From: a virus
IMG/VR virus record: IMGVR_UViG_3300045988_056669
Coordinates: 1-35,816 of that record
DNA length: 35,816 nucleotides
Strand: one strand, 5' to 3'
Below, piece after piece: positions 2,764-35,816 of the stretch. The notes beneath the pieces were generated by a model. It ran no database searches and was not told where the DNA came from. It saw nothing but the letters and a program-made list of their open reading frames with translations. Each line of letters starts with the position of its first letter. The first letter of the stretch is position 1. The position numbers and the translations under genes are program-made.

Positions 2764-3540
2764 ATGCATATTAACGAGGTTAAAAATAATGCTTTCTACC
2801 AATTTCCGCAATGGCTTTTGAAAGAAGAGCCATATAAGAATTTGGGTGATAAAGCGAAGCTTGCTTACATGCTGCTTTTTGACCGAAGAACACTCTCGAT
2901 TAAAAATAAATGGTATGACGATAACGGTCAGATCTACATGTATTTTACAATTGACCAATTCATGCAAGAGCTTAATTGCTCAAATAAAGCTGTTCTAAAA
3001 GCCAAGAAAGAGCTAGTCGAGGTTAGATTGCTGGAAGAAGTAAGACAAGGAAGAAACAAGCCAAACAGGTTGTATATTAACGGACGTGAACAAAGTACAC
3101 TTCTGGAAGTGAACAAAGTACACACTGGAAGTGAACAAAGTACACTTCTGGAAGTGAACAAAGTACACGCAATCAATACTAATAATATCAATACTAATAT
3201 ATCAAGACTAAGTAATCAACAACAAGGGGAGGTTGATGAAATTCGCAAATCTTACGATATGTTTTTTGAAGCTTTTCCGAAGCAACGAAAGAACTCATTT
3301 ACTCAACAGGACATCCTTGCGGATATTGATGAATTTGGAACAGAGCTTTACCAGTACGCTTTAAAACTAGCTATGGCTAACGAAGCTAACTATCCATCAT
3401 ATATTGACAGAATATTTACTTCATGGCGAAATGAAGGTGTAACCACTTTGGAACAAGCAAAAGAAAAACAAAGTAAGTATAGTAAGAGTAAACAGGATAA
3501 AGATTTTATTGGTTTTGGTGTTCAGGGGTCTGGGTATTAG
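2764..3540 (+). CDS. replication initiator: RepA_N-like N-terminal winged helix plus DnaD-like C-terminal domain (258 aa)
   Basis: The N-terminus FYQFPQWLL...AKLAYMLLFDR...YMYFTIDQF resembles Firmicute RepA_N initiators. The C-terminus ...YALKLAMANEANYPSYIDRIFTSWRNEGVTTLEQ is DnaD/DnaB_2-like. The gene carries internal iterons and is followed by a helicase-loader gene. Confidence 0.85.
   Translation: MHINEVKNNAFYQFPQWLLKEEPYKNLGDKAKLAYMLLFDRRTLSIKNKWYDDNGQIYMYFTIDQFMQELNCSNKAVLKAKKELVEVRLLEEVRQGRNKPNRLYINGREQSTLLEVNKVHTGSEQSTLLEVNKVHAINTNNINTNISRLSNQQQGEVDEIRKSYDMFFEAFPKQRKNSFTQQDILADIDEFGTELYQYALKLAMANEANYPSYIDRIFTSWRNEGVTTLEQAKEKQSKYSKSKQDKDFIGFGVQGSGY
3088..3168 (+). repeat. Four tandem iterons GAACAAAGTACAC(N9-10), 22-23 bp period, inside the initiator gene. 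Putative origin of replication.
   Basis: Units start at 3088, 3111, 3133 and 3156. They encode the duplicated peptide EQSTLLEVNKVH. Confidence 0.8.
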
Positions 3541-3543
3541 TTT

Positions 3544-4344
3544 ATGAATGAATTTACAAACACACGAAATACTTTGATGCCATTTCCAGAAGCAAAGATG
3601 GAGCAATCGAAAGAATGGTGCGATAAGCATCAATGCCAAAAGGTTAAAATTGCAAAGACCGGAGCCGTGATTTGTCCACAATGCAACAAAGAAGAGCGTC
3701 TTGAATTTGAAGAACAAAAGGCTCAAGAAAGTTTTAAAAGAAACGAAGAAATGAAACGCATTTACTATCTTGAAGAATTCAGTCTAATGGACAGCGAGCT
3801 CAAAAATGCAACGTTTGACAATTTTAAAGTTGACACAGCAGAAAGACAAGCCGATTTAAATTTCATTAAGAAAGAAGCGCGTGAGTATATTAAAGGTGTT
3901 CAAAACAATATCGTTTTGATTGGCGATTGTGGTGTTGGCAAAAGCCATTTAGCTTATAGCACTATTAAAGCTATTAGTGATTACAACAAGAAACTAGCTA
4001 CAGTTATCAACGTGGTTGATTTGATAGCAAAAGTAAAAGAAGACTTCACGCTCGAATCATATTACACTAACTTGCTTTCTGGAAAAGATAAGAACGATAA
4101 AATCGAGTATTTGGTTCTGGATGATTTAGGCACAGAGAAAACGTCAGAATGGTCATCAAACTTAATTTACAGCATTTTAAACAAGCGAACGAACACGATT
4201 ATCACAACTAATTTGACACCACCAGAAATTCAAAGACGATATGGAAAACGTATCTTCTCGCGAATTTTTAAAGGCGTAGGTCAAGAACACGTTTATCAAT
4301 TTAAAAACAAAACAGATGAGAGGATGAATCTTTGGAATGAATGA
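3544..4344 (+). CDS. DnaC/IstB-like AAA+ helicase loader with an N-terminal Cys-rich (zinc) region (266 aa)
   Basis: Walker A GDCGVGKSH. Walker B LVLDDLG. CDKHQC...CPQC lies near the N-terminus. Located immediately after the initiator gene. Confidence 0.85.
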   Translation: MNEFTNTRNTLMPFPEAKMEQSKEWCDKHQCQKVKIAKTGAVICPQCNKEERLEFEEQKAQESFKRNEEMKRIYYLEEFSLMDSELKNATFDNFKVDTAERQADLNFIKKEAREYIKGVQNNIVLIGDCGVGKSHLAYSTIKAISDYNKKLATVINVVDLIAKVKEDFTLESYYTNLLSGKDKNDKIEYLVLDDLGTEKTSEWSSNLIYSILNKRTNTIITTNLTPPEIQRRYGKRIFSRIFKGVGQEHVYQFKNKTDERMNLWNE

Positions 4345-10089: not shown

Positions 10090-10115
10090 AGCACCGATTG
10101 GTGCTTTTCTATTTT
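10090..10115 (+). terminator. second hairpin plus T-tract, immediately before the RBS of the next gene
   Basis: AGCACC-GATT-GGTGCT followed by TTTCTATTTT. GGAGG is at 10117-10121. Confidence 0.5.
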
Positions 10116-10124
10116 GGAGGGAAT

Positions 10125-10814
10125 ATGCAAATTGTCGAAAAGGAATTGACGTGGTTAAAACCATATGCGAATAATCCACGAGATAATGAAAGTGCAGTCG
10201 AACCAGTTGCAAATTCAATAAAAGAATTTGGGTTCAAAGTCCCAATCGTTGCAACGTCTGATGGTGAGATTATCAACGGACACACTCGTTTTAAAGCCTC
10301 TAAGTTGTTAGGACTCAAAAAAGTTCCAGTTATTATTTCAGATGATTTGACAGAAGAACAAATCAAAGCTTTTCGCTTAGCCGACAACAAAACTGGCGAG
10401 CTTGCAGATTGGAACGAAGAGCTACTTGCAAAAGAATTGGAAAAGCTTGATTTTAACTTAGAGCAATTCGGTTTTGAAAAGTTAGCAGATGAGTTCGACG
10501 AAGAAGATAACGAAGAAGACCCTTACACATCAAAGATAACTACACCAACATACGAGCCAACAGGCGAAGAAGTGTATCTACAAGACTTAGTGGACACCAC
10601 AAAGCGGGACGAATTGATTCGTAAAATTCAAACTGCTGATATCCCAAGCGATATCGAAGAATTTTTAAAGAATGCAGCTCAAAGACACTTACGTTTTAAT
10701 TATAGAAACATTGCTGAATATTATGCTAGCGCTCCAAAAGAAGTGCAAGAGCTTTTTGAAGACAGCGCACTGGTGATTATAGATTACAACAAAGCAATTG
10801 AAAACGGATATTGA
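10125..10814 (+). CDS. ParB/Srx N-terminal-domain protein (229 aa) with an uncharacterised C-terminal half
   Basis: LKPYANNPRDN...VANSIKEFGFKVPIV...IINGHTRFKASKLLGLKKVPVII...AFRLADNK is a ParB-like nuclease-domain signature. GGAGG RBS before the ATG at 10125 (the ORF-track start at 10098 lies inside a hairpin). Confidence 0.8.
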   Translation: MQIVEKELTWLKPYANNPRDNESAVEPVANSIKEFGFKVPIVATSDGEIINGHTRFKASKLLGLKKVPVIISDDLTEEQIKAFRLADNKTGELADWNEELLAKELEKLDFNLEQFGFEKLADEFDEEDNEEDPYTSKITTPTYEPTGEEVYLQDLVDTTKRDELIRKIQTADIPSDIEEFLKNAAQRHLRFNYRNIAEYYASAPKEVQELFEDSALVIIDYNKAIENGY

Positions 10815-10844: not shown

Positions 10845-11717
10845 ATGATGATGACAAAATTTGATAAGTACAAAGATGATTTTGCTGTATTTATATTAAG
10901 CCACGGCAGACCTGATTCAGTGCATACTCTAAAAACAATGGAAAAAGGAAACTACACAGGTAAGTGGTATATCGTCATAGATAACGAAGACAAGCAAGCA
11001 GATGAGTATTACAAGAAGTACGGAAAAGAACATGTAAAAATGTTTGACAAATTGGCCATTTCCAAAACTTTTGATACTGCAGATTTGTCACAGGAAAGAC
11101 GAGCTATAGTATACGCTAGAAACGCTTGTTTCGATATAGCTAAAGAAATAGGCTTGAAATATTTCGTCGAGTTTGATGACGATTATACGTCGTTTGGTTT
11201 CAGATACCCTAAAGATGGGAAACTGGTTCAAAAATCATGTGATAATCTAGATGACGTATTCGCATTGATGCTTGATTTTTTAATAGATTCTAACGCTTTG
11301 ACAGTGTGTATGTCGCAAGGCGGAGACCACATCGGAGGACTCAACGGAAATTGGCGCAAGTCTTTGTTGCGAAAAGTCATGAATAGTTTCTTTTGCAGGA
11401 CAGATAGACCATTTCAATTTTTGGGTAGAGTAAACGAAGACGTAAATACTTATACTTATTTAGGAAGCCAAGGCCATTTGATGTTTACAGTGACAGATAT
11501 TATGCTTAATCAGTTGCAGACACAATCAAATGCTGGAGGCATGACAGATCTTTATTTAGATGGTGGAACTTATCTCAAATCTTTCTATACAGTACTTTTT
11601 ATGCCTAGTGCAGTAACCGTTCAACCGATGGGAACCGCTCATAAGCGTTTGCATCACAATGTTGATTGGGAATGCTGTGTGCCTAAGATATTATCAGAAG
11701 AATTAAAACAAACATAA
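10845..11717 (+). CDS. hypothetical protein, possibly a GT-A-fold glycosyltransferase-like enzyme (290 aa)
   Basis: N-terminal strand FAVFILSHGRPD. Acidic DxD-like motif YFVEFDDDY. The fold assignment is a motif impression only. Confidence 0.7.
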   Translation: MMMTKFDKYKDDFAVFILSHGRPDSVHTLKTMEKGNYTGKWYIVIDNEDKQADEYYKKYGKEHVKMFDKLAISKTFDTADLSQERRAIVYARNACFDIAKEIGLKYFVEFDDDYTSFGFRYPKDGKLVQKSCDNLDDVFALMLDFLIDSNALTVCMSQGGDHIGGLNGNWRKSLLRKVMNSFFCRTDRPFQFLGRVNEDVNTYTYLGSQGHLMFTVTDIMLNQLQTQSNAGGMTDLYLDGGTYLKSFYTVLFMPSAVTVQPMGTAHKRLHHNVDWECCVPKILSEELKQT

Positions 11718-13539: not shown

Positions 13540-15078
13540 ATGGCTTATACAGAAACATTTGTCGATAGCACAGGTCAAACACATACATTAAAGCCTCGCT
13601 TTCATCGACAATCTAGAATGCGTTATCGAGCAGAGAGTTTAGAGGAATTGTTTGCAGATGATTTTAAACTTTTAAAACAATATATCAATCATCATCAAAC
13701 AGTACAACGTCCACGTATTCAAGAATTGCTTGACTATGCAGAGGGAAACAACCACACTATTCTAGAATCCGAACGACGCAAAGACCAAGACATGGCAGAC
13801 ACACGCGCCGTTCATAATTTTGGTGAATATATTGCTACATTCAAGCAAGGTTATCTAGTTGGGAATCCTATTCAAATTTCTTATGATGATGCAGGCAACG
13901 AAAGTGTTATCAGATTTTTAGATGAGATTTCAAAAAATAATAGTTTTCATCAATTAAACCGTTCACTTGTACTTGACTTATCTAAGACAGGTCGTGCCTA
14001 TGATTTAGTTTATCGTACGCAAGAAGACGAAACAAAAGCAGTAAAACTAGACCCGACATCGACTTTTGTTATTTATGACATGACCAAAGAAGAAAATAGC
14101 CTCGTCGGTGTTAGATATTATGACAAAAACCAATTCTCGAATAACCAAAAAATTATCGAGGTGTACACACCAGATGAAATCCTGATTATTGATTCATCTG
14201 AAGACTTTAAAATTATAGACGAAGCACCTCATTTTTTCGGAACGGTTCCATTAACTGAATATCTTAACAGCTCAAACGGTATAGGTGATTATGAGTCTGT
14301 GTTGTCTCTAATCGACTTGTATGATGCCTCACAGTCAGATACAGCCAATTATATGCAAGACTTGTCAGATGCAATTCTAGCCATTATAGGCCGTGTTAGT
14401 TTTCCAGCTGATTGTGATACAGCCGAGAAACAAATTGAGTTCATGCGTAAAATGCGCAAGGCTCGTTTGCTAAACTTAGAACCACCAGTTGATGCTAACG
14501 GCAATGAGGGTTCCGTCGATGCTAAATACTTATACAAGCAGTACGATGTTAACGGCACTGAAGCTTATAAGAATCGTGTTATTGATGACATTCATAAAAT
14601 CACAAACACGCCAGATTTAAGTGATGATAATTTTTCAGGAACACAATCTGGCGAAGCGATGAAGTGGAAAATTTTTGGCTTTGACCAGAAACGTGTCGAC
14701 ATGCAGGCACTTTTTGAAAAATCACTGAAACGCCGTTATAAATTGATTGCTCGAATTAGTGAGACTCTAAAAGAAATTCAAAACTTTGATTTGTCAAAAG
14801 TACGTGTAACATTCGTTCCTAATTTGCCAGCAGATGCCTCAAGCGTCGTTACAAATGCTAAAAGCTTGTACGGGGTCGTTAGCGATGAAACTGTGTACAG
14901 TATGCTGCAATCAGCGACTGGGGTTGATGCCCAAACGGAAATGGAACGAATTGAAAAACAACAACAAAATTCAAGCTTGCTGTCAATTCAATTAGAAAAA
15001 AATAGTCGCTTGTCTGACAAAGATTTGAATGAGGAAGACGAAAACAATGGTGAACAAGTACTGGAAGAAAAGGATTAG
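13540..15078 (+). CDS. portal protein (SPP1 gp6-like)
   Basis: Size of 512 aa, position after terL, and SPP1-type portal sequence character. Confidence 0.9.
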   Translation: MAYTETFVDSTGQTHTLKPRFHRQSRMRYRAESLEELFADDFKLLKQYINHHQTVQRPRIQELLDYAEGNNHTILESERRKDQDMADTRAVHNFGEYIATFKQGYLVGNPIQISYDDAGNESVIRFLDEISKNNSFHQLNRSLVLDLSKTGRAYDLVYRTQEDETKAVKLDPTSTFVIYDMTKEENSLVGVRYYDKNQFSNNQKIIEVYTPDEILIIDSSEDFKIIDEAPHFFGTVPLTEYLNSSNGIGDYESVLSLIDLYDASQSDTANYMQDLSDAILAIIGRVSFPADCDTAEKQIEFMRKMRKARLLNLEPPVDANGNEGSVDAKYLYKQYDVNGTEAYKNRVIDDIHKITNTPDLSDDNFSGTQSGEAMKWKIFGFDQKRVDMQALFEKSLKRRYKLIARISETLKEIQNFDLSKVRVTFVPNLPADASSVVTNAKSLYGVVSDETVYSMLQSATGVDAQTEMERIEKQQQNSSLLSIQLEKNSRLSDKDLNEEDENNGEQVLEEKD

Positions 15079-16015
15079 AGCGGAACAGCTAGCTAAAATC
15101 GAACGTGACGCATCTTTGGGAGATGAGTTCAATCGTCTATACAATTATCATTACAAGGAAATCGAGAAGGAAATACAAGCTTTTTATAATCGTTATGCTG
15201 ATAAGAATGGCTTGTCGATTGAAGAGGTGCAAAAACAAGTTGACAAAATGGACGTCAAGGCGTTCAAAGAGAAAGCTAAGCGGTACGTAGCCGAAAAGAA
15301 TTTTTCTCCAGAAGCTAACAGAGAACTCGGCATATACAATCTCAAAATGAAAGCCAGTCGACTAGAATTGTTACAGTGCCAACTCGATTTACAATTAATT
15401 GCATTGGGCAATGATGAACAGAAACAAACCAAAGATTTCATCACTAAAGACTATATAAACGAAATCAAAACGCAAGCTGGGTTACTTGGCAGGTCGGTCT
15501 TGACTCAAAAAGAAATCACACAAACAGTTAAAACACTGCTGAATACACCTTTCAAGGGCGCAACGTGGTCTGATAACATTTGGGAACGCCAAAACGTTTT
15601 GAGGCAAATCGTTGCAAAAATGACTGAAGAATACCTTTTGAAAGGAAAAAACCCAACGACGTTCATCAGTCAACTTAGAAAAGAATTCGATGTTTCTGTG
15701 AGCCAAGCTAAGCGTCTTGCGGTGACCGAAGGTGCAAGGGTGATGACGGAAGCGCAAAAGCAATCATTTACAGCAAACGGTTATGAGGAGTACGAATACA
15801 TCGCAGAACCAAGCGCTTGTCCGCATTGTGCAGCTTTGAGCGGAAAAATCTTCAAAGTTAAAAATATGATGCCGGGGGAGAACGCGGCACCAATGCACCC
15901 TCATTGTAGATGTTCAACTGCTGCTCACTACTCAAAATCGCAAGAAGAATATGAAGCTATGCTTGATAAATCAAGAGAAACACCGCTGGGTGTACCGATA
16001 AATTGGGAAGAATAA
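15047..16015 (+). CDS. minor head protein (Mu F / SPP1 gp7-like)
   Basis: The C-terminus EPSACPHCAALSGKIF...PMHPHCRCST is the hallmark of the Mu-F-like family. GAGGAAG RBS before the ATG at 15047. Confidence 0.88.
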   Translation: MVNKYWKKRIRAEQLAKIERDASLGDEFNRLYNYHYKEIEKEIQAFYNRYADKNGLSIEEVQKQVDKMDVKAFKEKAKRYVAEKNFSPEANRELGIYNLKMKASRLELLQCQLDLQLIALGNDEQKQTKDFITKDYINEIKTQAGLLGRSVLTQKEITQTVKTLLNTPFKGATWSDNIWERQNVLRQIVAKMTEEYLLKGKNPTTFISQLRKEFDVSVSQAKRLAVTEGARVMTEAQKQSFTANGYEEYEYIAEPSACPHCAALSGKIFKVKNMMPGENAAPMHPHCRCSTAAHYSKSQEEYEAMLDKSRETPLGVPINWEE

Positions 16016-16202: not shown

Positions 16203-16207
16203 ATTCT

Positions 16208-16294
16208 GGAAGATTACTCAAGTGGTTAAGAGAACAGGTTGCTAACCTTGTAGGCGTGTGAAAGCGTGCGAGGGTTCGAGTCCCTCATCTTCCG
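16208..16294 (+). tRNA. tRNA-Ser (anticodon GCT), type II with a long variable arm. The anticodon stem has one extra T (a bulge).
   Basis: Acceptor GGAAGAT/ATCTTCC. D-arm CTC-AAGTGGTTAA-GAG. Anticodon loop TTGCTAA. Variable arm GCGTG-TGAAAG-CGTGC. T-arm GAGGG-TTCGAGT-CCCTC. The 3' strand of the anticodon stem reads CCTTGT where CCTGT is expected. Confidence 0.85.
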
Positions 16295-16468
16295 TTGACT
16301 TGGCTGGTCGTTAAATAAGCCAAATAAACATCACTAGCGTGGCTTGTTAAGTCCTGAATAGAATTACATTAAATAGAGACTAGAGGGCGTGAGACGTCCG
16401 TTCTCGTGGCTCTATGAATGCGCTGGAAATTTAGGGTGACACAAGACTAGCATGGGAGGAATTAGAAA

Positions 16469-17113
16469 ATGGAAAAACAACAACTTTTAGCGTTAAACGC
16501 TCGAAACTTGCAATTGTTTGCAGATGGTGGTGAATCTGGAGGAGCAGACACTGGCGGAAACGATAGCGATTTTAATAACGATGTAGAAAATAATGATGCG
16601 CACGAAACAGACCCAGCGTTTGAAGTTCCTAAAACTCAATCAGAGCTTGATAGCATTATCAACAAGTCAAATCAAAAAGCTCTAGACAACTACAAAAAAG
16701 GCGAAGCACAACGTATTCAAGACGCAATTGCAGAGGCTCTTAAGAAAGAAAAAGACTACTCACAGTTATCTGAAGAGGAACGTGCCAAACGTGAATTTGA
16801 AGATAAACAGAAAGCATTCGCTGAAGAAAAAGCTAAATTTGAACGTGATAAGTTGGTCATTCAAGTCGAAAAGGATTTAGTTTCAAAAGGTTTACCAGCT
16901 GAATTTGCAGAATTGTTTGCTTTAGACAATGCTGAAAATTCTTTGAAAAAAGTAGGAGAGTTCGAAGCTGTCTTTAATCAAGCGGTAGCTGAAGCTGTTA
17001 AAGTTTCCTTACGTCAAAAAGCACCTGGTATCGGTGCTTCAAGTGTTAAACAAACAAATTATGGTGCTAACTTAGCTCAATATGCTAATGCTAGCAGCAA
17101 GAAACTTTTTTAA
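16469..17113 (+). CDS. capsid scaffolding protein
   Basis: N-terminal LNARNLQLFAD motif typical of DUF4355-type scaffolds. Coiled-coil, charged composition. Located upstream of the capsid gene. Confidence 0.8.
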   Translation: MEKQQLLALNARNLQLFADGGESGGADTGGNDSDFNNDVENNDAHETDPAFEVPKTQSELDSIINKSNQKALDNYKKGEAQRIQDAIAEALKKEKDYSQLSEEERAKREFEDKQKAFAEEKAKFERDKLVIQVEKDLVSKGLPAEFAELFALDNAENSLKKVGEFEAVFNQAVAEAVKVSLRQKAPGIGASSVKQTNYGANLAQYANASSKKLF

Positions 17114-33174: not shown

Positions 33175-34438
33175 ACGACTTTTGGCAGGTGCACTTTTAA
33201 GTATTAGCCTATTATTGCAGTCTACAGCTTATGCAGCTGTCGGTGATCAAGGTGTAGACTGGTCTCGTTATCAGGGCGCTAACGGTGTCTTTGGTTACAG
33301 TCATGACAAGTTTGCCATTATCCAGATTGGCGGTGTTAACGGCGGTGGGATTTACAAACAATCAACATATGAAACGCAAGTGGCGTCAGCAATTGCACAA
33401 GGCAAACGTGCTCATACTTACATTTGGTATCAAGTTGGTAGCAACGCAAGTCTTGGTGAGCAAGTCTTAAATACATTCTTGCCACAGGTTCAAACACCTA
33501 AAGGCTCAATCGTAGCGCTTGACTATGAAAGCGGCGCTAGCCCTGATAAGCAAGCGAATACCAATGCTATTCTTCATGGTATGCGTATGATTAAAGCGGC
33601 AGGTTACACACCAATGTATTACAGTTACAAGCCTTTCACGTTAGCTAACGTGTACACAGACCAGATTATCCGTGAGTTCCCTAATTCGCTTTGGATGGCT
33701 GCGTACCCAAGTTACAATGTAACTCCAACACCGAATTATGACGTCTTTCCAAGTATGGACGGTGTAGCAATTTACCAATTCACTTCAACATATATTGCAG
33801 GCGGTCTTGACGGTAATGTGGATTTAACTGGCATTACAGATAATGGTTACACTAAGAACAACAATCCACAAACACAAACTCCAGCAATCAATCAAGGACA
33901 ACAAGCAGATAATGCACCTAAGTCTGACATTACTGCAGGCAATCAAGTAAAAGTCAAATTTAGCGCTAGCACATGGGCAACCGGTCAAGGTATTCCATCT
34001 TGGGTTAAAGGTCGCACATATAGCGTAGCTCAAGTAAACGGCAATCGTGTATTGCTAGCTGGTATCAATTCATGGATTAATAAATCAGACGTTGAAATTA
34101 TTTCAGTTTCATCTGCGCCAATTCAAGCGCCAGCAACTAGCACGTACACAGTACGTTCTGGTGACACACTTTCAAGCATTGCTGCCAAATTTGGAACAAG
34201 CTATCAAACGTTAGCAAGTTTGAATGGTATTTCAAATCCTAACCTTATTTATGTTGGCCAAGTCTTACGCGTTAACGGTTCAGCAAATGCAGGTTCAGTT
34301 TACTACACAGTACGTGTTGGCGACAACTTGTCAGCTATTGCTAGCCGTTATGGTACAAGCTACCAATCAATCGCAGCATTGAACGGTCTAGCCAACCCAA
34401 ACTTGATTTACGCAGGTCAAACGCTTAAAGTTAAATAA
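33164..34438 (+). CDS. endolysin: N-terminal signal peptide, GH25 muramidase, SH3-like segment and two LysM repeats
   Basis: [26 protein letters not shown] (n, h and c regions with AYA). [11 protein letters not shown] is a GH25 motif. Two copies of YTVR.GD.LS.IA..YGTSYQ..A.LNG...PNLIY.GQ.L.V (LysM). AAGGAGG RBS. Confidence 0.92.
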
Positions 34439-34448
34439 GTTTTTTAAA

Positions 34449-34478
34449 CCCCTAGCCTTGATGGTTAGGGGGTTTTTT
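34449..34478 (+). terminator. strong intrinsic terminator ending the late/lysis operon
   Basis: CCCCTAGCC-TTGAT-GGTTAGGGG (9 bp, one G.U) followed by GTTTTTT. Confidence 0.9.
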
Positions 34479-34501
34479 GATATAATAAAAAAGGACGGTA
34501 A

Positions 34502-34529
34502 GGGGTTAGAGCACGACTAACTCCTTTTT
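34502..34529 (+). terminator. second tandem intrinsic terminator
   Basis: GGGGTTAG-AGCACGA-CTAACTCC followed by TTTTT. Confidence 0.75.
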
Positions 34530-34530
34530 G

Positions 34531-34559
34531 TTGTTTTAAAATTTAATATATGCTATAAT
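34531..34559 (+). promoter_or_regulatory. Promoter of the large non-coding RNA: TTGTTT, 17-nt spacer, extended -10 TGcTATAAT
   Basis: TG at 34551-34552 and TATAAT at 34554-34559. The -35-like TTGTTT is at 34531-34536. Confidence 0.65.
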
Positions 34560-34563
34560 ATTA

Positions 34564-35197
34564 TTATCGCAAATTTAAAACAGCTAACTAAATAATTTAG
34601 TGAAGATTGTTTGACAGCATGCTAAAGTTATACGCTTAATAGCTCGTTACACTAACGGTGGGATACTGTCGTTAGATAAGTAATCAATCTTTGATTGTTG
34701 CGAAGTGAAAGAATAGCAAGAGTGCGTGTGACGTGGAGGATATGTGTAACTAGGCTAAATTTAAACGGTGGTGGCGATAATAGACGTCTCTGTGAGAAAT
34801 AATCCTGCAAGCCCAAGCTTGACCACTTGAAGCAAGTAGGAAGTTGTCAAAATAAGCCATTGTGCGCATTGACGAGTTAAAAGCTCGTTGCTTACACCAA
34901 AAAATTGTACAAGTAGCCCAAAAGCGCAAGTGATAAATTGCAGATATTGTCAAATATTTACGTTTCTGAACGTCTGGTGAACGTTGAAGGTAACCAGTCC
35001 TGTCTAGTCATTGAACCTCTTAGGAAGTTGTGAGGTAGCTCCTCACGGCTCAGACCTAAGACGACTATCAGCTAATAAGTTGCATATATTTGAAGCAGAG
35101 CGAAGGCTCATTTAGTTAGTTGTTTTAAATTTGTGATAAATCCATACTCCTGAGGGGATATGTGATAGGGGCTAACATTTTGTTAGCTCTTTTTTTG
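34564..35197 (+). ncRNA. Large (about 630 nt) structured non-coding RNA candidate, closed by a 30-bp terminal helix. Possibly of the ROOL/GOLLD class of ornate phage RNAs, or a new class.
   Basis: No + strand ORF of 60 aa or more in 34439-35346. It has its own promoter and terminator. 34564-34593 pairs with 35110-35139 (28 Watson-Crick plus 2 G.U, the latter only valid for + strand RNA). Many internal helices. Confidence 0.7.
35168..35196 (+). terminator. intrinsic terminator ending the large RNA
   Basis: GGGGCTAACA-TTT-TGTTAGCTCT stem followed by TTTTTT. Confidence 0.8.
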
Positions 35198-35281
35198 TTG
35201 TTATTATGGGCACCAAATCAAAAAAAGTCTGATTCAACGGACTAGAAATTAAAAAAATATCAAATTTTTTCAAAAAAACAC

Positions 35282-35310
35282 TTGACATATTATAATATAT
35301 ATATTATAAT
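35282..35310 (+). promoter_or_regulatory. Early sigma-70 promoter (TTGACA, 17-nt spacer, TATAAT), a duplicate of the promoter at 962-990
   Basis: 35281-35315 is identical to 961-995, including the 22-nt palindrome at 35289-35310. Confidence 0.85.
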
Positions 35311-35346
35311 TAATTTATAAAATAAAGAAATACAAAAGGAGAACAA

Positions 35347-35538
35347 ATGACAGAAGAATTAACAGCTCAACAACGAGCTAACAAAAAATGGAATGAAAGA
35401 AACAGAGAACACAGAAATTATCTGACCAAAAGGTCAACGTCTCGTGGTTTTATTCGCAATCATGCCACAAAAGAAGACTTACTTGAATTACAAAAACTTA
35501 TTCAAGAAAATTTAAAAAAATTTTTAAAAAACTCTTGA
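35347..35538 (+). CDS. hypothetical basic early protein (63 aa)
   Basis: AAGGAGA RBS. It is the first gene after the promoter at 35282. Its stop codon overlaps the -35 box of the next promoter. Confidence 0.7.
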   Translation: MTEELTAQQRANKKWNERNREHRNYLTKRSTSRGFIRNHATKEDLLELQKLIQENLKKFLKNS

Positions 35539-35563
35539 CAATATGTATTATATATACTATAAT
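35535..35563 (+). promoter_or_regulatory. Early sigma-70 promoter: TTGACA (35535-35540), 17-nt spacer, TATAAT (35558-35563)
   Basis: Exact consensus hexamers. Upstream TTTTTAAAAAACTC element. It drives a leader of about 170 nt and then the ORF at 35735 (position 38 in window numbering). Confidence 0.85.
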
Positions 35564-35697
35564 ATAATCATAAATAAAAAAGGTATTCATTCTCCCCGAC
35601 CAAAGTTTGAATGAACACCTAAAGTAAACATTACTATCTAAATAAGATATATCAATAGTATATCAAAAAGTATCTAGATAGTAAACAGCTAATAGGT

Positions 35698-35816
35698 ACT
35701 TTTTTTAGTACCTCAAAAAGAAAGAGGTAAAAACATGAACTACATTTTACGTAACCACAAATTTGATATTAACGACAACAAAGCTTTTGAAATCTTTAGC
35801 GATTACACTTGCGAGA
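35698..35816. repeat. Terminal direct repeat, right copy (identical to 1-119)
   Basis: Exact 119-nt match to the start of the window. Confidence 0.95.

Follow-up and report, generated by a model that had tools for sequence, protein, structure and literature searches.

ROOL RNAs are a class of large structured RNAs with a mean size of 581 nt (Weinberg et al. 2017, PMC5737381). Those of env-120 and of E. faecalis assemble without protein into octameric cages of D4 symmetry, around 280 Å across, and that of L. salivarius into a hexamer; a variable linker is disordered inside the ROOL cages (PMC12286853, PMC12990946). The encapsulation of macromolecules has been proposed as a role for ROOL (PMC12286853), and the L. 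salivarius RNA is as abundant as 16S rRNA, stable, constitutive, and dispensable (PMC5643018). Weinberg et al. also raised the possibility that ROOLs are co-transcribed with tRNAs (PMC5737381). Our literature search returned no paper assigning a function to ROOL or describing a ROOL in Streptococcus prophages. Here, we analyzed the viral record IMGVR_UViG_3300045988_056669 of IMG/VR, positions 1 to 35,816 (hereafter the window, meaning the whole stretch of 35,816 nt). We consider it very likely that the region following its lysis genes is a ROOL-class RNA gene (RF03087) of a Streptococcus equinus-group siphophage, organized as an autonomous unit, for which a trans-acting accessory RNA is the best guess.

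The identification comes from a scan of the whole window with Rfam 15. ROOL matches positions 34572-35128 of the + strand with 242.5 bits (gathering score 99.1, E = 3.4e-54), which is 2.4 times the gathering score. The hit spans model positions 1-574 of 574, is untruncated, and occurs on the + strand only. It is the sole large match of the scan, and the outcome is the same in E-value mode. An earlier reading of the letters and open reading frames (ORFs) alone, the sequence-only reading, had suggested a likeness to GOLLD or ROOL and proposed running the ROOL, GOLLD, HEARO, OLE, and raiA models. Once these were run, the ROOL half of the suggestion stood, as the only model to match and at full length, and the GOLLD half did not: GOLLD, OLE, HEARO, and raiA gave no match at the gathering score in the whole window, nor at E <= 1 in 34400-35816, where the permissive scan also brought up no other large-RNA family. 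Both partners are present for 141 of the 159 pairs of the model, and 110 of these are canonical in the register of cmscan. Most of the non-canonical ones regain pairing after 1-nt register shifts in the structure computed by RNAalifold. Judged by this match, the locus is a new member of the known ROOL class rather than a new class.

The copy in the window shares several features with the class. These include the full-length match to the model, a length of 557 nt over the model span or 576 nt with the full closing helix, a long closing helix, a multi-junction architecture, one supported pseudoknot, a variable linker, and conserved sequence blocks, as well as its carriage by a phage whose host belongs to the Lactobacillales and to a rumen-associated group of species. 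It differs from other ROOLs in being a stand-alone unit with its own promoter and terminators and no adjacent tRNA, and from the Rfam model in a closing helix that extends 4-8 bp further. GOLLD, the giant ornate RNA of the RF01998 type, resembles it in being a large ornate RNA of Lactobacillales phages and prophages that also forms RNA-only cages. It differs in its larger size and in its division into a 3' domain that is conserved and a 5' domain that varies. The elements of the RNA itself are as follows.

34564-35139 (+): core of the ROOL RNA including the full closing helix (Rfam match at 34572-35128, folding z of -5.2, structure test on 59 relatives)
34564-34593 (+): 5' arm of the closing helix P1, pairing with 35110-35139 (inverted repeat of 30 nt, 93% complementary)
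35110-35139 (+): 3' arm of P1, pairing with 34564-34593
34863-34867 (+): 5' half of a pseudoknot, UGCGC, pairing with 34924-34928 (5-bp core, covarying)
34924-34928 (+): 3' half of the pseudoknot, GCGCA, at the 5' flank of the variable linker
34929-34963 (+): variable linker, between the invariant blocks GTACAAGTAGCCCAAA and TCTGAA
35018-35061 (+): long hairpin, with lower stem 35018-24 / 35055-61, upper stem 35026-35 / 35041-50, and loop UAGCU at 35036-40

The composition and folding of the region agree with an RNA gene. In the gap between the endolysin stop at 34438 and the first early gene at 35347, the + strand has only ORFs of 27-35 aa, in line with the earlier observation that 34439-35346 lacks a + strand ORF of 60 aa or more; the - strand of 34439-35346 has two TTG-start ORFs, of 54 and 67 aa. 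The G+C content of the core (38.7%) is close to the window mean (38.5%), and that of the flanking spacers is 19.5-31%, so the region is indeed less AT-rich than the promoter-type spacers. The 576-nt segment has a minimum free energy of -173.5 kcal/mol, compared with -138.7 +/- 6.7 for dinucleotide shuffles (z = -5.2). This folding energy, together with the ROOL match and the conserved promoter and terminator described below, supports the earlier proposal of a highly structured, independently transcribed RNA of about 630 nt.

To place the RNA among its relatives, we searched GenBank phages with blastn and found 14 Streptococcus phages. Among them, the S. equinus phages 36L, Bsingle, Pika, PYS40, and six of the PY series (ten in all) are around 91% identical to the ROOL region, Javan207 is 89% identical, and S. 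gordonii PH15 and Javan246 are 70-77% identical. In the S. equinus phages, the block of similarity covers window positions 34550-35138, i.e., from the -10 box to the end of P1. Rfam identifies ROOL in the group representatives Bsingle, Javan207, PH15, and Javan246 with 247-350 bits. The window itself is not in the phage collection; its best relative by structural genes is Javan213, with 83% identity over 60% of the query. A wider survey applied pattern scans, twice to IMG/VR and once to GTDB genomes. Because the pattern AATAGACG..AATAATCC and the 16-mer GTACAAGTAGCCCAAA gave many chance matches, notably in genome contigs, the matches were filtered with an nhmmer profile, which removed them. 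This yielded 75 full-length ROOLs of the streptococcal type and about 50 distant ones, and all 12 of the survey loci from IMG/VR that were checked are ROOL by Rfam (245-402 bits).

From these we built an alignment, A1, of 59 distinct streptococcal ROOLs, each extended by 75 nt on the upstream side and 110 nt on the downstream side. It comprises 12 sequences of the equinus type and 47 of the gordonii/mitis type, in about three clades. The Rfam structure was projected onto A1 through the window's own cmscan alignment, hence the test of the structure is independent of the relatives. In the projected structure, 73.0% of the cells are paired, a share that falls to 35-49% in controls whose 3' partners are slid 1-3 columns. 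Pairs that change on both sides number 47, against 8-15 in the slid versions, and the covariation score is 0.239, against a maximum of 0.097; none of 500 shuffles reached the observed values. RNAalifold applied to A1 gives 153 pairs, of which 63 are compensatory. A test of covariation in homologues had been proposed for this locus; in A1 its helices are conserved, with compensatory changes far above the slid controls. At the level of sequence, the comparison shows a ROOL-class fold kept by compensatory changes, inside what appears to be an insulated promoter-terminator cassette.

The closing helix P1 departs from Watson-Crick pairing at two positions only, G34569.U35134 and G34583.U35120. Taken alone, it has 92.9% of its cells paired over the 59 sequences, compared with 31-50% for controls with slid partners, and seven of its pairs change on both sides. 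For example, alignment columns 101/705 hold A-U in 32 sequences and G-C in 26, columns 107/699 hold U-A in 47 and A-U in 12, and columns 114-115 / 691-692 have three pair types each. The 30-position helix with two G.U exceptions that the sequence-only reading had described was thus recovered both by a repeat finder and by covariation. Its choice of the + strand as the RNA also holds, since the covariance model matches that strand only, and the G.U pairs and the covariation agree with it. In most relatives, A-U or G-C stands where the window has its two G.U pairs, which fits selection acting on a + strand RNA. The part of P1 common to all clades is 34568-34593 / 35110-35135; its outer extension relative to the start of the Rfam model amounts to 4 bp and covaries. 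The outermost 4 bp (34564-67 / 35136-39) are confined to the S. equinus clade. We infer that the RNA is closed by a P1 helix of 26-28 bp.

Five sets of interior helices had also been proposed. Four of them match the ROOL consensus, and the fifth, 34858-67 / 34924-32, stands only in part. It is nested neither in the Rfam structure nor in that of RNAalifold, and its outer part shares bases with the 3' strand of a different helix (34856-60). What remains of it is the pseudoknot core. There, 34866:34925 is G:C in the equinus clade and A:U in the other streptococcal clades (UGCAC/GUGCA), and the Rfam consensus letters at this place are uGcc / Ggca; the variants G:C, A:U, and C:G support the pairing. 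The published ROOL consensus has three pseudoknots, and 34863-67 / 34924-28 is the one supported here. A blind covariation search for tertiary contacts returned hundreds of candidates of 3-4 bp and was set aside; it is noisy because the 59 sequences are split 12 to 47 by clade. We also discarded the notion that the non-pairs in the cmscan register are lost helices (P4 at 34737-54 / 35078-91 and the lower stem of the long hairpin). They are 1-nt shifts instead, and RNAalifold re-registers P4 to 34738-51 / 35078-91 plus 34753-56 / 35070-73, and the lower stem to 35018-24 / 35055-61. The hairpin at 34803-34841 is present in full-length form.

The linker at 34929-34963 is the only freely varying, indel-rich stretch of A1, with a 24-nt insertion in locus L306 and a deletion in L305. 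By homology, it would be the counterpart of the disordered, inward-facing loop in the solved ROOL cages (PMC12286853). One of the window's hairpins falls 11 nt short of its length in the other streptococcal clades, and the window has no counterpart of a small hairpin around model positions 451-460. The clade is also set apart by the loop at the tip of its long hairpin. This apical loop reads UAGCU, with the self-complementary AGCU, in the equinus clade, and the commoner UCGCU in the 47 other streptococcal sequences; UCGCU is also the commonest form among distant ROOLs in a partial survey by regular expressions. By the order of helices, this loop may correspond to L18 of Kretsch et al., in the published symmetric kissing loop (L18 / L15). 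If it is this kissing loop between shells, the contact would be 4 bp long here, and the UAGCU difference may mean an altered kissing contact between subunits. An exact 11-nt repeat, TAGGAAGTTGT, noted earlier, was found again by the repeat finder. As a functional element it was rejected: it is exact in one of the 59 sequences only, the window itself, and its copies lie in unrelated helices. Hence, it is not a selected feature, and we take it as a coincidence.

The RNA core is flanked by the signals of a predicted separate transcription unit, with an accessory hairpin and a closing terminator downstream of P1.

34449-34478 (+): first intrinsic terminator, ending the late (lysis) operon, with a 9-bp stem of which 6 pairs are G-C, followed by a T-run (-17.7 kcal/mol, z = -3.2)
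34500-34533 (+): second terminator, directly 5' of the ROOL promoter, with a 10-bp stem and a T-run (-12.4 kcal/mol)
34531-34559 (+): sigma-70-type promoter with an extended -10, made of TTGTTT (34531-36), a 17-nt spacer, TG (34551-52), and TATAAT (34554-59)
35140-35166 (+): accessory hairpin between P1 and the terminator, part of a two-hairpin fold of -20 kcal/mol
35167-35197 (+): terminator closing the RNA gene, with an 11-bp stem followed by seven T (-12.4 kcal/mol, z = -4.1)

A terminator scan reported 34449-34471, 34500-34526, and 35167-35191, each followed by a T-run; over the region it found 5 sites, compared with 0.6 expected from shuffles. The two tandem terminators claimed upstream are therefore both found and both fold, as does the strong closing terminator that had been placed at 35168-35196. 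The latter's counterparts are seen in the inspected relatives of each clade, as a hairpin and T-run 3' of P1 whose sequence depends on the clade. At the site of the second terminator, A1 shows a hairpin and T-run of different sequence in the equinus-clade loci L258, L263, L040, L305, L306, and L217. This second terminator would insulate the RNA gene against read-through from the late operon. The accessory hairpin is clade-specific: a variant, self-complementary by eye, is found in L258, L040, L268, and L305, and the hairpin is absent in L001 (Bsingle), L002, L037, and L176; Javan207 is among the relatives in which it is deleted.

The extended -10 promoter proposed at 34531-34559 is present, and its conservation in the 59 relatives supports it, even if the consensus scan did not list it because its -35 hexamer matches at only 3 of 6 positions. 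All 59 distinct relatives have TG-n-TATAAT and the TG of the -35 TTG unchanged, at least 90% keep the first T, and the sequence around these letters diverges between clades. In all 59 streptococcal-type ROOLs, the TG-n-TATAAT element lies at a fixed distance from the helix, the -10 box ending 8 nt before the first conserved pair of P1. This spacing and the customary distance of 6-7 nt point to a probable start near A34566. With the end of the terminator around 35195, the predicted primary transcript would be about 630 nt long.

The main alternative is that the RNA is not autonomous, i.e., that it is made by read-through of the late operon and then processed out, as suspected for the ROOLs of tRNA arrays. 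The RNA does directly follow the endolysin on the same strand, and the ROOLs of distant phages lie against the 3' end of a tRNA or overlap it, an arrangement suggestive of co-transcription followed by RNase processing. We nevertheless regard it as improbable here: two intrinsic terminators separate the lysin from ROOL, no tRNA is adjacent to the window's copy, and TG-n-TATAAT is invariant 8 nt before the conserved P1 in 59/59 relatives amid divergent surroundings.

Still less probable is a coding region for small proteins, the reading given by the GenBank annotation of Bsingle, Pika, PY1, and others. The record PQ621708 carries two annotated coding sequences (CDS), 141 and 129 nt long, across its ROOL, and + strand ORFs of 30-35 aa do exist in the window. 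These ORFs all start with TTG or GTG, however, the substitutions preserve base pairs, indels of 1-2 nt occur throughout the alignment, and the RNA model fits the whole stretch. In Bsingle (L001, PQ621708.1), the two "hypothetical protein" CDS, at 3146-3286 and 3339-3467, lie inside the ROOL at 3023-3581 (247.5 bits with Rfam). In ten PQ6217xx records (Bsingle and nine sisters), the ROOL stretch is annotated as one or two "hypothetical proteins". These small CDS are probably mis-annotations, and at least 10 GenBank phage records carrying hypothetical proteins over the ROOL stretch would thus call for a database correction.

We give almost no credence to a DNA element acting in cis, be it an attachment site, a packaging site, or an origin, whose inverted repeats would resemble RNA structure by chance: its position at the late/early junction and the attachment site that must lie just downstream in temperate relatives speak for it, but the G.U pairs and covariation work only as + strand RNA, the model matches one strand, and the block of homology stops at P1, before the junction with the integrase or host. 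Equally negligible is the fallback of the sequence-only reading in case neither model fitted, a new class of large non-coding phage RNAs with no relation to ROOL or GOLLD: testing brought nothing in its favour bar a score lower than that of most ROOLs, and the Rfam scan refutes it through a full-length match at E = 3e-54, with the ROOL blocks AAUAGACG, GUACAAGUAGCC, UCUGAA, GCUCAGAC, and GAGCGAAGGCUC all shared and the linker correctly placed.

Some points weigh against the interpretation as an autonomous ROOL gene that works like its characterized relatives. The S. equinus clade scores about 100-150 bits under typical ROOLs (330-400 bits), partly because of the shorter hairpin and the absent small hairpin; hence, identical oligomerization is not guaranteed. 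Many of the compensatory cells trace back to few events because there are only about three clades, even though the slid controls, which share the same relatedness, still fall far short of the observed values. The start site, the 3' end, and the independence from late transcription are all predicted from sequence. Finally, no ROOL has an assigned function, and a role in sequestration or enclosure is speculation.

The position of the RNA gene in the genome bears on what it may do. Searches with PHROG profiles show that the window is a siphophage genome with all its genes on one strand, in modules for replication, packaging, head, tail, and lysis. The order starts with DnaD- and DnaC-like helicase loaders, Erf, SSB, RusA, an ArpU-like regulator, and a ParB-like protein. 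Next come the small and large terminases, the portal, a minor head protein, the scaffold, the major head protein, and Dit. The holin and endolysin follow, and after them the ROOL unit, between the endolysin and the promoters at 35282-35310 and 35535-35563. No integrase was found in the window by these searches.

In the wider set of loci, a lysin lies upstream of ROOL on the same strand in 51 of 78. Where an integrase was detected, it follows ROOL on the opposite strand in 6 of 6 loci (L291, L293, L303, L292, L253, and L277), and repressor-like ORFs lie beyond the integrase in L293 and L303. In S. equinus Sb05, S. gingivalis, and a Streptococcus metagenome-assembled genome, host genes start 0.1-0.6 kb after ROOL. 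In these three bacterial genomes, ROOL therefore marks the right end of the prophage. In the window's nearest relatives (L258, L040, L305, L306, and Bsingle), same-strand ORFs follow ROOL, as they do in the window, and no integrase was detected. ROOL thus fills the slot, from the lysin to the attachment site, in which prophages keep accessory genes with transcription of their own. Genomes without a lysogeny module retain it as well.

Prophage "morons" (to use the term of lambdoid phage genomics), or lysogenic-conversion cassettes, also sit in the slot that separates the lysin from the attachment site. The ROOL unit resembles them in its succession of a terminator, its own promoter, one gene, and its own terminator, and in its location, in temperate relatives, between the lysis genes and the junction with the integrase or host. 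It differs from them in that its product is a structured RNA, with no protein, and in that it is also kept in genomes without a lysogeny module. The L. salivarius megaplasmid ROOL (Cousin et al. 2017, PMC5643018) offers a second comparison, being of the same class, apparently constitutive, and untied to a phage late programme. Constitutive transcription was measured for the L. salivarius RNA and is predicted for that of the window. The two also differ in that the former is on a megaplasmid, has a promoter mapped 225-450 nt upstream, and forms hexamers, whereas the latter is in a phage and its promoter abuts P1.

Under the interpretation as an autonomous ROOL gene, the host RNA polymerase would start near A34566 and stop around 35195, producing an RNA of about 630 nt independently of the late operon. 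By homology, this RNA would fold into a flat multi-junction monomer that self-assembles without protein into a hollow homo-oligomeric cage, most likely an octamer, with the linker 34929-34963 pointing inward. Our best guess is an accessory RNA, abundant and stable, that would act in trans by sequestering or enclosing a macromolecule of the host or the phage in the infected or lysogenic cell. The trans-acting role is guessed because of the moron-like architecture, the accessory-gene slot, and the retention in integrase-free relatives. In our opinion, it neither regulates in cis nor arises as a by-product when tRNAs are processed. A bolder version, which we hold only tentatively and think rather unlikely, is that of an autonomous "RNA moron" kept without a lysogeny module and acting in trans during the lytic cycle, with an assembly interface possibly remodelled in the equinus clade. 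Retention without a lysogeny module would imply a trans action in lytic growth, e.g., in the role of decoy or container towards a host factor or a defence component. If so, the AGCU loop, the shortened hairpin, and the longer P1 could change the stoichiometry or the stability of the cage.

Part of this is already known: the ROOL class dates from 2017, its structure was solved in 2025, and routine Rfam annotation would return the match. Mildly new are the stand-alone insulated unit, in contrast to the ROOLs of tRNA arrays, the fixed position of ROOL across temperate and apparently lytic streptococcal phages, and the availability of isolated S. equinus phages that bear ROOL as a tractable system. 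Few RNA structures of recent years are as striking as the ROOL cages, and most members of the class are in metagenomic tRNA arrays, where no genetics is possible. The isolated S. equinus phages (Bsingle, Pika, and the PY series) would make the question of ROOL function tractable. Since the unit is compact and separately promoted, the phages small, and the host cultivable, deletion or promoter knock-out, expression time-courses, and searches for cargo are feasible.

Proximity to tRNA genes, a frequent trait of ROOLs, is lacking in the window, where the only tRNA, a Ser-GCU at 16207-16295 (+) with a long variable arm, is 18 kb from ROOL. This absence does not exclude membership in the class because the literature says "often" only. 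The tRNA-Ser sits within the head-morphogenesis module, flanked by the minor head gene at 15029-16015 and the scaffold gene at 16469-17113. The non-streptococcal ROOLs of IMG/VR are found in tRNA arrays, and the 3' end of the preceding tRNA often touches or overlaps the 5' end of ROOL. In L121, L090, L068, and L081, the neighbouring tRNA overlaps the 5' end of ROOL by a few bases. Other structured RNAs also occur near distant ROOLs: RAGATH-21 RNAs in L121, L081, and L113, a skipping-rope RNA in L097, and a tmRNA in L030.

Downstream of the RNA gene, 35282-35310 and 35535-35563 (+) are two perfect promoters (12/12, TTGACA-17-TATAAT), each preceded by an A-rich tract. These are presumably the early promoters, and they bracket a 63-aa ORF at 35347-35538. 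The stretch that follows, 35564-35735, has about 170 nt without a + strand ORF of 25 aa or more, a G+C content of 24%, hairpins, and a terminator-like palindrome at 35703-35722. On its - strand, there is a sub-threshold match to ctRNA_pT181 (33.8 bits for a gathering score of 56, E = 0.019). This stretch could be a leader or a small RNA. Elsewhere in the window, just before the terminase genes, 10098-10814 (+) encodes a protein with a ParB-like nuclease or methyltransferase-associated domain, and 10845-11717 (+) matches PHROG 842, "beta-glucosyl-HMC-alpha-glucosyltransferase" (E = 1e-73). From these matches, the pair may have a function in DNA modification.

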